The position numbers were made by a program, and so were the translations under genes. DNA of 64,000 bases from Anaerovoracaceae bacterium. Its GTDB lineage: Bacteria; Bacillota; Clostridia; Christensenellales; Aristaeellaceae. The notes beneath the pieces were generated by a model, which saw only the letters and a program-made list of their open reading frames with translations, made no database searches and had not been told where the DNA came from. Shown piece by piece: positions 1 through 33,293 of this stretch; the stretch's first letter is position 1, and each line of letters starts with the position of its first letter. Location: contig CAVANO010000011.1 of the NCBI GenBank assembly GCA_963590165.1, positions 12,988 through 76,987 of the forward strand, in the 5' to 3' direction.

Positions 1-777
1 CGCGTAGATGAGGAGCATGTATTTGTCGGTGAAAATCGCCTTGAGCTGCTTCATAAACGGCACGGCAGGCTCATCGCTTTGCTGCGCTTCCAGCGTGACG
101 CGCTCCTTCGTGAAGTAGTACTCCAGCAGCGTCAGCGGCAGCGCGAGAATGGACAGGATGCTCATGAGGATAATCCACTTGCTCTGGTCCACACCAATCA
201 TCGGCATAATGACCATCGGGAATACAAGCGCCACCAGAATGCCGCTCATCATGATGGTGGCAATCTGGTTGAAGACTGACAGGCTGCCGCGCTGCGTGGT
301 GTTGCGCGTGGACAGCGGCACCATCAGGTTGTGGCTCATGTTGAAGATGGTGTAGGCGAAGGAATAGAACAGGTTGTAGCTGACCATGACCCAAATCGCC
401 TGCATCGTCTGCGAACCGCCGGGCACGGTGAACAGCAAGATGCCGGTGACTGCCACCAGCGGCGCGGACAGCAGCAGCCACGGGCGCGCTTTGCCCTCCT
501 TGGTGCGCGTGCGGTCGATGATGTAACCCATGAGGACATTCGTGATGGCATCAATGATTTTCGAGATGATGGGGAAAACCACCAGAAACGCGCCGCCCCA
601 AAGCCCGGTCAGCTTCAGCACGTCCGTGTAATAGACATTCAGGTACGTTGCAAGTACGGCATTGAGCAGCAGCGCACCTGCCGGACCGAGCAGATAGCCC
701 AGCCATTTTTCGGCAGGGGTCACGTCCTCGGCGTGAATCCGGCTTTGAAACAGTTTGCGTTCCACGAGTTTTGACAT
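1..777 (-). CDS. MFS/GPH-family sugar:cation symporter, N-terminal part (gene continues past window start)
   Basis: Absent from ORF track because there is no stop in the window. Minus-strand ATG at 775-777 lies 8 nt after AGGAGG, and the frame stays open to position 1. Translation [34 protein letters not shown]...[13 protein letters not shown] with serial hydrophobic helices, typical of melibiose/glucuronide-type carriers. Confidence 0.75.
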
Positions 778-29240: not shown

Positions 29241-30425
29241 TTATGGTTGTCCTTCTCTTTTTCGGTCAACGCTGATGACCGTCACGGCGGTGCTGATGGT
29301 TCGTCCGGTCGAGGGAAACTGCAGGTAAAACAGCCGTTTCAGGCGTTCCATGACGATGTTGCCTGCTTCGACATCCGCATTCGGCAGCAGCACGGCAATG
29401 GTGCTGTCGTTTGTGCGCGTGATGACGTCGCTCCGGCGCAGGTTCAGCAGCATGATTTTCACAAGCCCGTTCATCGAGGCATCATGGCGGACACTGCCGC
29501 GCTCAAGCTCCGTGAGCGTCAGCAGACCGAGCACTGCCTGACCGCCGCTGCGCTCCATGGAATGGCGCTGCATGCGGAAAAGCGCCTTGAACACGCGGCT
29601 GTCGCAGAGAATCGCGCGGCCGTTGTCCTCCTCGCTGAGCAGCTCCTCACGCAGGGCGGACACATCGTTCTCGACCGCCCGAACCGCCTGCTGCACGCGG
29701 ATCCGGTAGTCGCGCATCTGCTCCTCCATTGCAAATTCGCTGATGCGCGAGGTCAGTTCTGCCTGCTGCGCGGCATCAGCCGTGCGTTCGGTGCTGTTGA
29801 GCCCTTCAATTAACCGCTGCTGCAGCGCCTCATTCGTCGGGTCGGCATCAATCGCCTGACGCACCAGCGCGACATAGCGGTGCGCGTGACCCGTTTGCTT
29901 CAGAAACTGAAGCCGCGCGTCAATTGCCTGCAGGAACATCTGATGCAGCCGCTCGGCCTTGCCGTTCGTCCATGTCAGCCGGCGGTCTTCCTCCAGCAGC
30001 CGCCCCTGATAGAGCGACAGAATCTGTGTGATGACCTCGTCAGGCGGTGCAGGTGCATCGCTCTGCTGATATGGTGCAAGCAGCTGCTCGAACAGCAGCA
30101 CATCCACCGTCACGCTCGGCTCGCTGACCCAGCGGTAACCGCCGCGGATGGTTGTCAGGCAGTCCGACAGTTCCATTGAAATCGTTCGCAGAAGCGTCCG
30201 TTGCCGGCTGACGAGCGTCTTGAGCGCGGATTCGGGTCTTGCGGAGGCCTCCTCCGGCCAAAGCACGCGCATCAGCGTTTTGGCATCCGCCGTCTGATTC
30301 GGCGCGAGAATCAGGTATTCCATTAGCAGAATGCCCTTGGGGGAATGGGAAAGCTGCTCATCGACGGACACGCCGTCCTTTTCTACATGAAAGCTGCCAA
30401 AGAGATTGATTTTTACATGGCTCAT
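29241..30425 (-). CDS. SARP/BTAD-type transcriptional regulator fused to a degenerate GGDEF-like domain
   Basis: N-terminus INLFGSFHVEKDG...LLMEYLILAPNQTADAKTLMRVLWPEE...ALKTLVSRQRTLL...GGYRWV (winged helix), followed by a BTAD-like helical region. The C-terminus matches a GGDEF-domain layout, but the signature is replaced by RTNDSTIAVLLP. Confidence 0.65.
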   Translation of the reverse strand: MSHVKINLFGSFHVEKDGVSVDEQLSHSPKGILLMEYLILAPNQTADAKTLMRVLWPEEASARPESALKTLVSRQRTLLRTISMELSDCLTTIRGGYRWVSEPSVTVDVLLFEQLLAPYQQSDAPAPPDEVITQILSLYQGRLLEEDRRLTWTNGKAERLHQMFLQAIDARLQFLKQTGHAHRYVALVRQAIDADPTNEALQQRLIEGLNSTERTADAAQQAELTSRISEFAMEEQMRDYRIRVQQAVRAVENDVSALREELLSEEDNGRAILCDSRVFKALFRMQRHSMERSGGQAVLGLLTLTELERGSVRHDASMNGLVKIMLLNLRRSDVITRTNDSTIAVLLPNADVEAGNIVMERLKRLFYLQFPSTGRTISTAVTVISVDRKREGQP

Positions 30426-30491
30426 GGGCGTATCTCCTTTTCAACAGTTACATCATAACAAAAATGATGCAAAAGTGCAAGACCCGAAGAG

Positions 30492-31031
30492 TTCTCACTT
30501 CCATCGTCGAGCTTTAGCAAACGAACAAGGGGGCTTTCCGGTCGCCCCCTTAAACCCCTTCGGTTTTGGCGGATTATAATAGAACGCATGCCAGAAGGGT
30601 TCTCACTTCCATCGTCGAGTTTTAGCAAACGAAGAAGGGGGCTTTCCGGTCGCCCCCTTAAACCCCTTCGGTTTTGGCGGATTATAGTAGAACGCATGCC
30701 AGAAGGGTTCTCACTTCCATCGTCGAGTTTTAGCAAACGAAGAAGGGGGCTTTCCGGTCGCCCCCTTAAACCCCTTCGGTTTTGGCGGATTATAGTAGAA
30801 CGCATGCCAGAAGGGTTCTCACTTCCATCGTCGAGTTTTAGCAAACGAAGAAGGGGGCTTTCCGGTCGCCCCCTTAAACCCCTTCGGTTTTGGCGGATTA
30901 TAGTAGAACGCATGCCAGAAGGGTTCTCACTTCCATCGTCGAGTTTTAGCAAACGAAGAAGGGGGCTTTCCGGTCGCCCCCTTAAACCCCTTCGGTTTTG
31001 GCGGATTATATGATGGAACGCATGCCCGAAG
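30492..31031. repeat. Tandem array C: 108-bp unit x 5 (copies 2-5 essentially identical)
   Basis: TTCTCACTTCC recurs at 30492, 30600, 30708, 30816 and 30924. Each unit reads TCACTTCCATCGTCGAGTTTTAGCAAACGA + GGGGGCtttccggtcGCCCCC + ttaaaCCCCTTCGGttttgg + a TATA-rich box. Confidence 0.92.
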
Positions 31032-31062
31032 GGGTTCGGGGGCGAGATGAAAGCATCCGATT

Positions 31063-31115: not shown

Positions 31116-32729
31116 TTACTTGGCGTACTCCATCGACCGCGTTTCGCGGATGACGTTTACGCGGATCTGACCCGGATATTCCATTTCCTTCTCGATGCGC
31201 TTGGCGATTTCCTTGGCGAGAATCTTCGTGCCGTCGTCGGTCACGTCGTCGGGCTTCACCATGATGCGCACCTCGCGGCCGGACTGGATGGCGTAACACT
31301 TCTCGACGCCCGGGAAGGACATTGCGATTTCCTCCAGCTTCTCCAGACGCTTGATGTAGTTCTCCAGGCTCTCGCGGCGCGCGCCGGGACGGGCAGCGGA
31401 GATGGCGTCTGCCGCCTGCACGAGCACTGCCTCGACCGTCTGCGGTTCCACATCGTTGTGATGCGCCAGAATCGCGTGGATGACATCGGGGCTCTCGTGA
31501 TACTTGCGTGCCAGTTCGCCGCCGAGGGTGACGTGTGTACCTTCTGCCTCGTGGTCAACCGCCTTGCCGATGTCGTGCAGCAGACCTGCGCGCTTGGCAA
31601 GCTGAACGTCAGCGCCGAGCTCTGCTGCCATCAGGCCGGCGAGATGGCTGACTTCGATGGAGTGCTGGAGCACATTCTGACCGTAGGAGGTGCGATACTT
31701 CAGGCGACCGAGCAGCTTGACGAGCTCGTGGTGGATGCCGTGCTGATTCGTCTCGAACACGGCAGCCTCGCCTGCCTCGCGAATCTGGTTTTCGACTTCC
31801 TTTTTTGCCTTGTCCACCATTTCCTCGATGCGGGCGGGATGGATGCGGCCATCGTTAATCAGACGCTCCACCGCGATGCGCGCGATTTCACGGCGAACCG
31901 GGTCGAATGCGGACACGATGACGGCTTCAGGCGTATCGTCAATGATGATGTCAACGCCGGTCGCAGTCTCAAGGGCGCGGATGTTGCGGCCTTCGCGGCC
32001 GATGATGCGTCCCTTCATGTCGTCATTAGGCAGCGCGATGACGGATACCGTGCTCTCGGCGACGTGGTCGGATGCGCACTTCTGGATGGCAAGCGCGATG
32101 ATGTTGCGCGCCTTCTTCTCGGCCTCTTCCTTCGCACGGGCTTCGATATCGCGCACGGAGGCGGCGGCATCGTGGAAGGCTTCCTTCTGTACGCGGTCAA
32201 TGATGATTTGCTTGGCCTCGTCCTGCGTCATGGCGGCGATGCGTTCAAGCTCGGCTGTCTGCTTGTTGAAGAGCTGTTCCGCCTCGTCATGCAGGCGGTT
32301 CGTGTCCTCCTGACGAAGTTCGATTTGCTCGGTGCGCTTCTTCAGGTCGTTCTCGCGGTCATCCAGGCTGTCGGAGCGCTTGTCCAGCGACGATTCACGC
32401 TGAAGCAGGCGGTTCTCCGTCCGCTGCACCTCTGCGCGGCGTTCGCGGACTTCATTCATCTCACGGGTACTTTCGGCGCGTTCGCGGTCAATCTCGTTCT
32501 TGGACTTGAGAATCTCCGCCTTGGCTTCCTGCACTTTTTCCTTCTTGTAGTCGTCAGCCTTGCGCTTGTAGTCATCCGCCTTGCGGACGGCATCTTCGTA
32601 AAGCTGTGCGGCTGTCTTTTCGCTGCGATTAATTTTTTCCTCGATGAGGTTCTTCCGGTAGGTATAGCCTGCGAAGCCGCCTCCTGCCGCAGCAACGAGC
32701 AGAAGAAGAATCCACACAATGGTCGGCAC
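31116..32729 (-). CDS. rny: Ribonuclease Y
   Basis: ORF 31116..32831. GTG at 32729 lies 8 nt after AAGGGGGA and gives the usual N-terminal TM ([17 protein letters not shown]); alternative ATG 32765 has no RBS. Coiled coil, KH domain ([13 protein letters not shown]), HD domain ([10 protein letters not shown]...LLHDIGKA). Confidence 0.92.
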
Positions 32730-32799
32730 GATTGAAATCCCCCTTTCAAAGTGTTTTTCGTTCATATGTTCAGATTTTGCATCCATGCCCGGCTGACGC

Positions 32800-32833
32800 A
32801 AAAAAGCCGTACGGGACATGAAATCCCACACGG
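32800..32833 (-). terminator. Intrinsic terminator/attenuator at the 3' end of the rny leader
   Basis: Minus strand: CCGTGTGGGA-tttcatg-TCCCGTACGG (10 bp, two G-U pairs), a single C, then TTTTTT. Ends 35-70 nt before the rny start. Confidence 0.5.
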
Positions 32834-33264
32834 CCGGATGCTGTTCATTCGATATCAGACCCCGGTTTCCGTACCGCAGGGCATACTACGGCACAAAAAA
32901 CAGCAGGGCAAAAACCAGAATCAGTCATGCGCACCCCTGACCTCCGTCGAGGGCACACAAAAACAAGCGCAAGCATGCTGCGTGCATACGGACAGACAGC
33001 GCTGCCCTTTCAGCAGAGGCTGAAGGGGATCATCGCCGAATATAGGAAGCCTGCGGAATCGCTGTGCCGAAAAGGGACACAAGCTGACCGCGGGAAAACA
33101 CGCTGCAGAAGCGGCATGAATACAAGGGTGACTGCTTAAAGAAACCGAACGTGGCACATTCGCACCGCAGAAAAAGCCGTGCAAGCCTGCCGCGGACGGG
33201 ATTTTCAGGCTTTATCGAAAACAGCATGGGCACATCTGCAGACGCGCCTCAGCCGGTCATGAAT

Positions 33265-33293
33265 ATTTTACAATTAAAGCGTGCTTCTGTCAA
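33265..33293 (-). promoter_or_regulatory. Strong sigma-70-type promoter heading the long rny leader
   Basis: Minus strand: TTGACA (33288-33293), 17 nt, TAAAAT (33265-33270). No ORF with an RBS between it and rny. Confidence 0.55.

Follow-up and report, generated by a model that had tools for sequence, protein, structure and literature searches.

A conserved 5' leader of the RNase Y gene with a predicted terminator-antiterminator arrangement in uncultured gut Clostridia

The window analyzed here is a stretch of 64,000 nt (positions 12,988 to 76,987 of contig CAVANO010000011.1) from the Anaerovoracaceae bacterium assembly GCA_963590165.1, and it carries on its minus strand rny, the gene for RNase Y. 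The region that precedes rny is a real, conserved and uncatalogued cis-regulatory leader of this gene, and it probably functions as a zipper-type transcription attenuator that gates rny: the putative first nucleotides of the transcript (segment S1) are complementary to the 5' arm of an intrinsic terminator at the far end of the leader, and a long-range helix (P1) would bring the two together. Conservation of the architecture, the alternative pairings and the covariation between paired segments are all evident in related genomes. In Firmicutes, most mRNA decay begins with RNase Y, an enzyme whose dosage is important. To our knowledge, the sole described control of rny is post-transcriptional autoregulation in Bacillus subtilis, and our literature searches found no described rny attenuator. 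The elements of the leader are as follows, with all coordinates on the minus strand of the window and the transcription start site placed from promoter geometry.

33265..33293, minus strand: sigma-A-type promoter TTGACA-17-TAAAAT (TTGACA at 33293-33288, 17-nt spacer, TAAAAT at 33270-33265)
33250..33258, minus strand: S1 box GACCGGCUG (GAUCGGCUG in most relatives), beginning 5-7 nt after the -10 hexamer
33229..33248, minus strand: hairpin H1, GGCGCGUC-UGCA-GAUGUGCC, of differing sequence and length among relatives
33213..33225, minus strand: 5' strand of P1, GCUGUUUUCGAUA, in which GCUG is also able to pair locally with CGGC of S1
32855..33212, minus strand: variable interior domain with several hairpins and no conserved open reading frame (ORF), alignable in the closest relatives only
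32840..32854, minus strand: 3' strand of P1, UAUCGAAUGAACAGC, the partner of 33225-33213, closing the interior
32800..32836, minus strand: intrinsic terminator (hairpin 32835-32805, U6 run 32805-32800)
32836-32824, minus strand: 5' arm of the terminator, CGGCCGUGUGGGA, overlapping the site complementary to S1
32784..32796, minus strand: post-terminator box, UCAGCCGGGCAUG, the complement of transcript nucleotides 1-13 in the clade of the window
31116..32747, minus strand: rny with its Shine-Dalgarno sequence GAAAGGGGG (32747-32739), GTG start at 32729 and stop at 31116

The promoter agrees with the consensus at 11 of 12 positions and is the sole minus-strand promoter-like site that a consensus scan detects between 32400 and 33800; the same scan finds none between the terminator and rny (32800 to 32729). 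Transcription would start ~7 nt after the -10 hexamer, with S1 forming the 5' end of the RNA. The terminator hairpin (GGCCGTGTGGGA-TTTCA-TGTCCCGTACGGCT) has 13 pairs counting G-U, the last T of its stem opens the T6 run, and its folding energy is -20.2 kcal/mol. The GTG start codon lies 70 nt past the T-run, and the rny product contains RNase_Y_N (1.7e-51), KH and HD domains (Pfam). Approximately 460 nt separate the promoter from the terminator hairpin, and the full leader measures about 530 nt in the window. The gene upstream of the leader encodes a GH2 beta-galactosidase and is divergent, which makes co-transcription of rny from it impossible. The 466-nt leader stretch folds better than all of 100 shuffled versions (z = -4.4). 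An initial annotation, made from the window sequence alone, had reported a near-consensus promoter at 33293-33265, a hairpin with a T6 run before rny, ~460 nt lacking an ORF with a ribosome-binding site, and no second promoter between terminator and gene, all of which we also find. The extent that it gave holds for the elements at 33293-32800, but not for the end at 32800, as the functional unit reaches about 32784.

BLAST searches with the leader matched, outside the closest species, only its ends (positions 1-97 and 446-506), and rny-upstream regions were therefore extracted directly. The sample comprises 70 such regions from 40 genera of an uncultured gut and rumen family of Clostridia (30 genomes of the same genus and 40 from 39 other genera); these genomes are related, and hence are not independent samples. 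With the family promoter taken as a perfect TTGAC[AT]-16..18-TAnnnT upstream of rny, one perfect TTGACA(G)-17-TAcAAT promoter occurs in 30/30 same-genus genomes (387-650 nt before rny) and one perfect TTGACA-type promoter in 40/40 genomes of the other genera (77-713 nt before rny). A common leader architecture is present in 57/70 regions, spanning 19 genera; conservation in relatives had been named beforehand by the initial annotation as one of the points on which its reading could be refuted. In 5' to 3' order, the shared parts are S1 (GAUCGGCUG), H1, GCUGUUUUCGAUA, the interior, UAUCGAA..CAGC, a linker, the terminator and a U-run, and the leaders are 237-613 nt long.

The individual parts are conserved to very different degrees. 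In 57/57 leaders, S1 begins 5-7 nt past the -10 hexamer and its CGGC 8-10 nt past it. H1 is 16-39 nt long (median 8 bp and -11.4 kcal/mol) with 48% identity between genera, the interior domain ranges from 43 to 403 nt, and the linker from the 3' strand of P1 to the terminator arm is 0-5 nt (mostly 0-4). The base of the terminator stem, GCCGUGCG...CGCACGGC, is conserved in sequence across the 19 genera and is followed by U4-8; such conservation is expected if the stem base must also pair with S1. At least four U follow the hairpin (median -19.9 kcal/mol) in 57/57 leaders, and at least five in 47/57. A purely structural hairpin would not need a U-tract, and its retention in all 57 leaders thus supports a terminator. 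The terminator-to-rny spacer (49-118 nt) is unconserved except for a GCCG and the Shine-Dalgarno sequence.

Base pairing between S1 and the terminator 5' arm was assessed in fixed test windows anchored on the invariant CGGC and GCCG, with both anchors and windows chosen by us. In the 9-bp register, 78.2% of cells are paired, compared with 22-47% for partners shifted by 1-3 columns. Covariation scores 0.197 versus 0.133 in shuffles (0/500 shuffles as high), and when partners are permuted among leaders, 0/5000 permutations are as good as the cognate combination. Pair five (UA 35, UG 6, CG 2, AU 1, GU 1) and pair six both show compensatory changes (for pair six, GC 35, GU 6, AU 2, UA 2, UG 1). 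S1 thus has the properties of an antiterminator strand complementary to the terminator 5' arm, and we regard it as such on comparative grounds.

The long-range helix P1 (median 15 bp) encloses the interior. Cognate P1 duplexes average -14.4 kcal/mol, 3.2 better than duplexes with partners from other genera, and reversed-sequence controls show no cognate advantage. In a partner permutation with 27 representatives, cognate strands average -14.5 kcal/mol versus -11.4 kcal/mol for permuted strands, with 0/5000 permutations as good, and again 0/5000 when the invariant GCUG/CAGC is left out. The pair just outside GCUG:CAGC is represented by six standard pair types. A column-wise covariation count for inner P1, made on a gapless alignment, failed because bulges shift the register, and the permutation of duplex energies was used instead.

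Each of the 57 leaders was folded singly at successive transcript lengths. With the 5' module alone, CGGC of S1 pairs locally with GCUG of the P1 5' strand around H1 in 48/57; both tetramers are invariant, so that covariation cannot test this local pairing. In transcripts that reach the terminator loop, the S1:arm helix is predicted with at least 5 bp in 49/57 and P1 with at least 7 bp in 51/57. Once the transcript extends through the U-run, the terminator hairpin is predicted in 54/57, and the S1:arm helix is still present in 8. In full leaders up to the start codon, S1 is paired with the post-terminator region in 24/57, including that of the window, for which the predicted fold is a four-way junction of the S1:post helix, H1, P1 and the terminator hairpin.

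These folds suggest a sequence of events in which S1 would at first pair locally, around H1, with the GCUG of the conserved segment that follows. As the interior is transcribed, the P1 strands (GCUGUUUUCGAUA and UAUCGAA..CAGC) would zip together, freeing S1 for the terminator 5' arm, which starts 2-5 nt past P1. P1, H1 and the S1:arm helix would then form a three-way junction that restrains the terminator arm, and polymerase would read into rny. If S1 were instead sequestered, bound or removed, the 13-bp hairpin with U6 would form and transcription would stop 70 nt before rny. In the full-length mRNA of the clade of the window, the terminator hairpin would form later and S1 would re-pair with the box just past the U-run. 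We infer from these alternatives that termination at the leader terminator actually occurs and is regulated.

What would decide between the two outcomes is the most speculative part of the proposal. The suggestion that we prefer, although we make it tentatively and consider it rather unlikely as it stands, is that S1 is removed or detached by RNA-decay enzymes at work on the nascent 5' end. RNase Y might cut the U-rich CGAUA stretch beside H1, or RNase J might digest the RNA from its 5' end; rny would then be transcribed less when decay capacity is high, a form of homeostatic feedback. An extension of this idea, which we would credit somewhat less, is that the leader senses the integrity of its own 5' end, with decay capacity read co-transcriptionally and fed back on rny transcription. 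The first nine nascent nucleotides would be the only strand able to disarm the terminator, and the interior of 43-403 nt would provide a time window during which RNase Y (by cutting next to H1) or RNase J (as a 5' exonuclease) could take off S1. Other options for the trigger are a CGGCUG-binding protein or purely kinetic, constitutive attenuation.

Several observations weigh against attenuation of rny by this leader. The S1:arm core helix spans just 6-9 bp, and of the nine pairs four are invariant or change on one side only, and therefore contribute no compensatory evidence. With the whole terminator present in the window, the terminator fold is favored over the antiterminator fold (-188.1 versus -177.9 kcal/mol); the antiterminator can precede the 3' arm while the completed terminator is thermodynamically favored, which implies a kinetic competition. 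The element is missing from 13/70 family members, mostly those with short leaders, and likewise from other families of the order, so that it would be dispensable for rny expression as such. A weak proximal promoter for rny would be beyond the reach of the consensus scan, no conserved pocket or protein site pointing to a signal was found in the leader, and both the efficiency of termination and the read-through into rny are deduced from predicted structures.

The same conserved parts might alternatively form a constitutive stability or translation element, a reading that we consider unlikely. A closed junction would bury the 5' end of the mRNA, control of rny would be post-transcriptional through attack by RNase Y and RNase J, and the hairpin with its U-run would be leaky and structural. 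The four-way junction of the full-length fold in the window, with a 12-bp S1:post helix, would suit such an element, as would the autoregulation of B. subtilis rny via mRNA stability. In the clade of the window, the S1:post helix (CAUGACCGGCUGA with UCAGCCGGGCAUG) has an energy of -22.6 kcal/mol, and the 5' pattern is matched by the reverse complement of the 3' module. A GCCG core follows the U-run in 45/57 leaders, and S1:post beats permuted partners in all but 53/5000 cases. However, 12 leaders lack the post box, flanking positions outside the anchor pair no better than base composition predicts, and cognate S1:post is superior in just 6/19 genera. Family-wide S1:post pairing beyond the GCCG core is therefore unsupported, and the pairing is real in some clades only, including that of the window. 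For the terminator arm and the post box as partners, there was no signal (3964/5000 permutations as good). Moreover, a stability element leaves unexplained both the tract of at least four U in 57/57 leaders and the covariation of S1 with the terminator 5' arm.

An attenuator driven by a trans-acting protein, which would bind repeated CGGCUG boxes and sequester S1 to cause termination (in the manner of TRAP, PyrR or the SL-2 factor proposed for the plasmid attenuator cATT), appears less probable still. The near-invariance of S1 and the abundance of CGGCUG in the interiors (43 observed versus 6.1 expected, compared with 4 versus 3.2 for the complement CAGCCG) are in its favor, and the cATT authors suggest a factor of this kind for their most conserved segment (PMC13401043). 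Yet the extra box is lacking in the clade of the window and in 33/57 leaders, the locus has no linked gene for a candidate protein, and the two alternative pairings already account for the invariance of S1. The initial annotation had also offered as its alternative a free-standing RNA of ~450 nt. Such an independent ncRNA (non-coding RNA) of ~460 nt, acting in trans while rny is expressed from incidental read-through or an unrecognized proximal promoter, would fit a highly structured, ORF-free RNA bracketed by a strong promoter and a strong terminator, and the terminated leaders of attenuators often accumulate. We nevertheless judge it very improbable: the interior is unconserved in sequence and in length (43-403 nt), conservation is limited to the terminator and antiterminator alternatives, the unit is single-copy and in every case immediately precedes rny on the same strand, and the 49-118-nt gap between terminator and rny contains no conserved promoter. 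Terminated leader RNA could accumulate as a by-product of attenuation, but a free-standing RNA is unnecessary to explain the data. The reading preferred by the initial annotation, a long terminator-gated 5' leader controlling rny, fits the comparative evidence, in which the unit always accompanies rny.

The leader matches no catalogued RNA family. The initial annotation had recognized no RNase P, tmRNA, T-box or 6S signature and had proposed a comparison with Rfam; at gathering thresholds, Rfam 15 families gave 0 matches in the window and 0 leader matches in 17 relatives, and no tRNA or tmRNA genes were found in the window. At relaxed E-value thresholds, the top sub-threshold Rfam match is trpB (26.6 versus 59 bits), which covers the terminator alone. 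A riboswitch was considered and rejected, given an interior of 43-403 nt that is unalignable between genera, no conserved ligand-binding core and no Rfam match; conservation coincides exactly with the segments of the alternative pairings, leaving the interior free to vary, which makes a metabolite-binding riboswitch unlikely. A small protein or upstream ORF was likewise rejected: leader ORFs have no Shine-Dalgarno sequence, and 1-nt indels shift their frames and lengths among three close relatives that are ~91% identical over the leader.

In its own genome, the 5' motif has a single occurrence, at rny. A regulon was rejected, as the second match to the pattern in this genome corresponds to the 3' module of the same leader, read as its reverse complement. 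In 380 genomes of 41 other families of the order, the exact 5' pattern had 0 matches. A stricter pattern, run over 185,579 species genomes, gave 33 matches, 31 of which have a promoter directly upstream; these 31 are metagenome-assembled genomes labeled Clostridia, Clostridiales or Christensenellales, mostly from ruminant gut, and rny lies 211-506 nt downstream in 26 of them, while the remaining 5 end at the locus edge. The other 2 matches, in Acinetobacter and Sutterella records, lack both the promoter and rny and appear to be chance matches.

Long rny leaders as such extend further. In other families of the order, a consensus promoter lies 113-250 nt before rny, mostly without a leader terminator. 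Of 29 genomes (loci L118-L146, of which 27 genomes are from 16 other families), 28 have a perfect or near-perfect TTGAC[AT]-16..18-TAnnnT 113-253 nt before rny. A long leader behind a very strong promoter thus appears from these genomes to be a general feature of rny in this order, of which the attenuator would be an elaboration within the one family. In some genera of the family itself, the leader is short (48-169 nt) and lacks both S1 and a terminator. In the short or divergent leaders of loci L068, L074, L082, L071 and L059, S1 is absent and the conserved terminator is mostly so, yet UGAUACA or a close variant is retained; it sits at or near the 5' end of the transcript in short leaders and matches GAUA(C/G)A of the P1 5' strand. 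This stretch may be a conserved cleavage or recognition site.

Additional copies of CGGCUG were observed inside the leaders of loci L013-L037 and L043-L046 (for example, UUUCGGCGGCUG-hairpin-GGUCGGCUGCAUAGGAAU in L026). Across most of the genus they make up a unit similar to the 5' module; they are absent from the clade of the window, and could be back-up antiterminator strands or protein-binding sites.

In Escherichia coli, RNase E controls rne by acting on a hairpin in the 5' untranslated region (5' UTR) and through mRNA stability, with no terminator. The analogy with RNase E drawn by the initial annotation holds insofar as both are genes for a major decay-initiating endoribonuclease with a long structured regulatory leader; it does not extend to mechanism, which for rny would be transcription attenuation, and both the enzyme and the RNA are unrelated to those of the rny leader. 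The 5' UTR of B. subtilis rny is 164 nt long, and the gene is subject to autoregulation at the level of mRNA stability, with cleavage by RNase Y and trimming by RNase J1 (Korobeinikova et al., 2023, PMC10303841); the term terminator has 0 occurrences in that paper. Both cases share the gene, the sigma-A promoter and a long non-coding leader that should set the level of RNase Y, whereas the leader described here is 237-613 nt long and has a conserved intrinsic terminator and a predicted antiterminator.

The closest mechanistic parallel that we considered is cATT of plasmid pLS20 and related conjugative plasmids, in which the antiterminator forms by default (PMC13401043). Like cATT, the rny leader is long, has an intrinsic terminator directly before the first gene and no ligand pocket, and contains a central long stem or domain whose base would be extended by an upstream segment that pairs with the terminator 5' arm. 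In cATT this segment can alternatively sit in a weak local stem-loop, to which the predicted local pairing of S1 with GCUG would correspond. Unlike cATT, which serves the conAn1/conAn2 conjugation operon, the rny leader serves a chromosomal housekeeping gene, and there is no sequence relationship between the two. The antiterminator strand of the rny leader would be the extreme 5' end of the transcript, H1 lies between this strand and the closing helix to give a three-way junction, and in the domain a variable set of hairpins of 43-403 nt takes the place of the single long imperfect stem. The resemblance is one of mechanism and not of homology, with the rny side of the comparison drawn from sequence and predicted folds. 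A second parallel is B. subtilis pyrG where, in the account of Meng, Turnbough and Switzer (2004) given in PMC7039003, extra G residues from CTP-sensitive reiterative transcription pair with the 5' part of the terminator. On that account, both leaders would prevent termination by pairing their 5'-terminal nucleotides with the first half of a terminator hairpin further downstream; however, the pyrG leader is short, whereas the strand in the rny leader is template-encoded, with its partner ~150-550 nt downstream and brought near by a long-range helix. No homopolymer run occurs at the rny-leader start site, the start region being ATTCATGACCGG or ..TGATCGG.

If the proposal is correct, a terminator/antiterminator leader would add a transcriptional layer to the control of rny, and the leader would represent both a well-defined RNA motif outside Rfam, with compact conserved ends, and a chromosomal case of the recently described zipper-type attenuator. 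What is new here is the anatomy of the gate, in which the antiterminator strand would be 5'-terminal and the closing helix long-range; the unusual trait is that the antiterminator strand would be the transcript's own 5' end.

rny would not be the only ribonuclease gene with a long leader in this genome. Upstream of rnjA (RNase J; own-genome contig C18, L147 3172-3505) is an ORF-free leader of ~320 nt with an extended -10 promoter (TGTGATATAAT) and a weak terminator-like hairpin ~40 nt before the start codon, which on sequence evidence makes rnjA a second such gene. On the other side of rny, from ~80 nt past its stop codon, a 108-nt unit is repeated 5.1 times with 96-100% identity (window 30486-31033). 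Its core (hairpin GGGGGCTTTCCGGTCGCCCCC plus AAACCCCTTCGG) is a dispersed repeat with 59 matches in the same genome, several of them in arrays with ~100-nt spacing on other contigs, and it looks like a REP-like family. The gene after this repeat array (window 29241-30425, minus strand) encodes a 394-aa protein with winged-helix Trans_reg_C and BTAD domains, a SARP/AfsR-like regulator.

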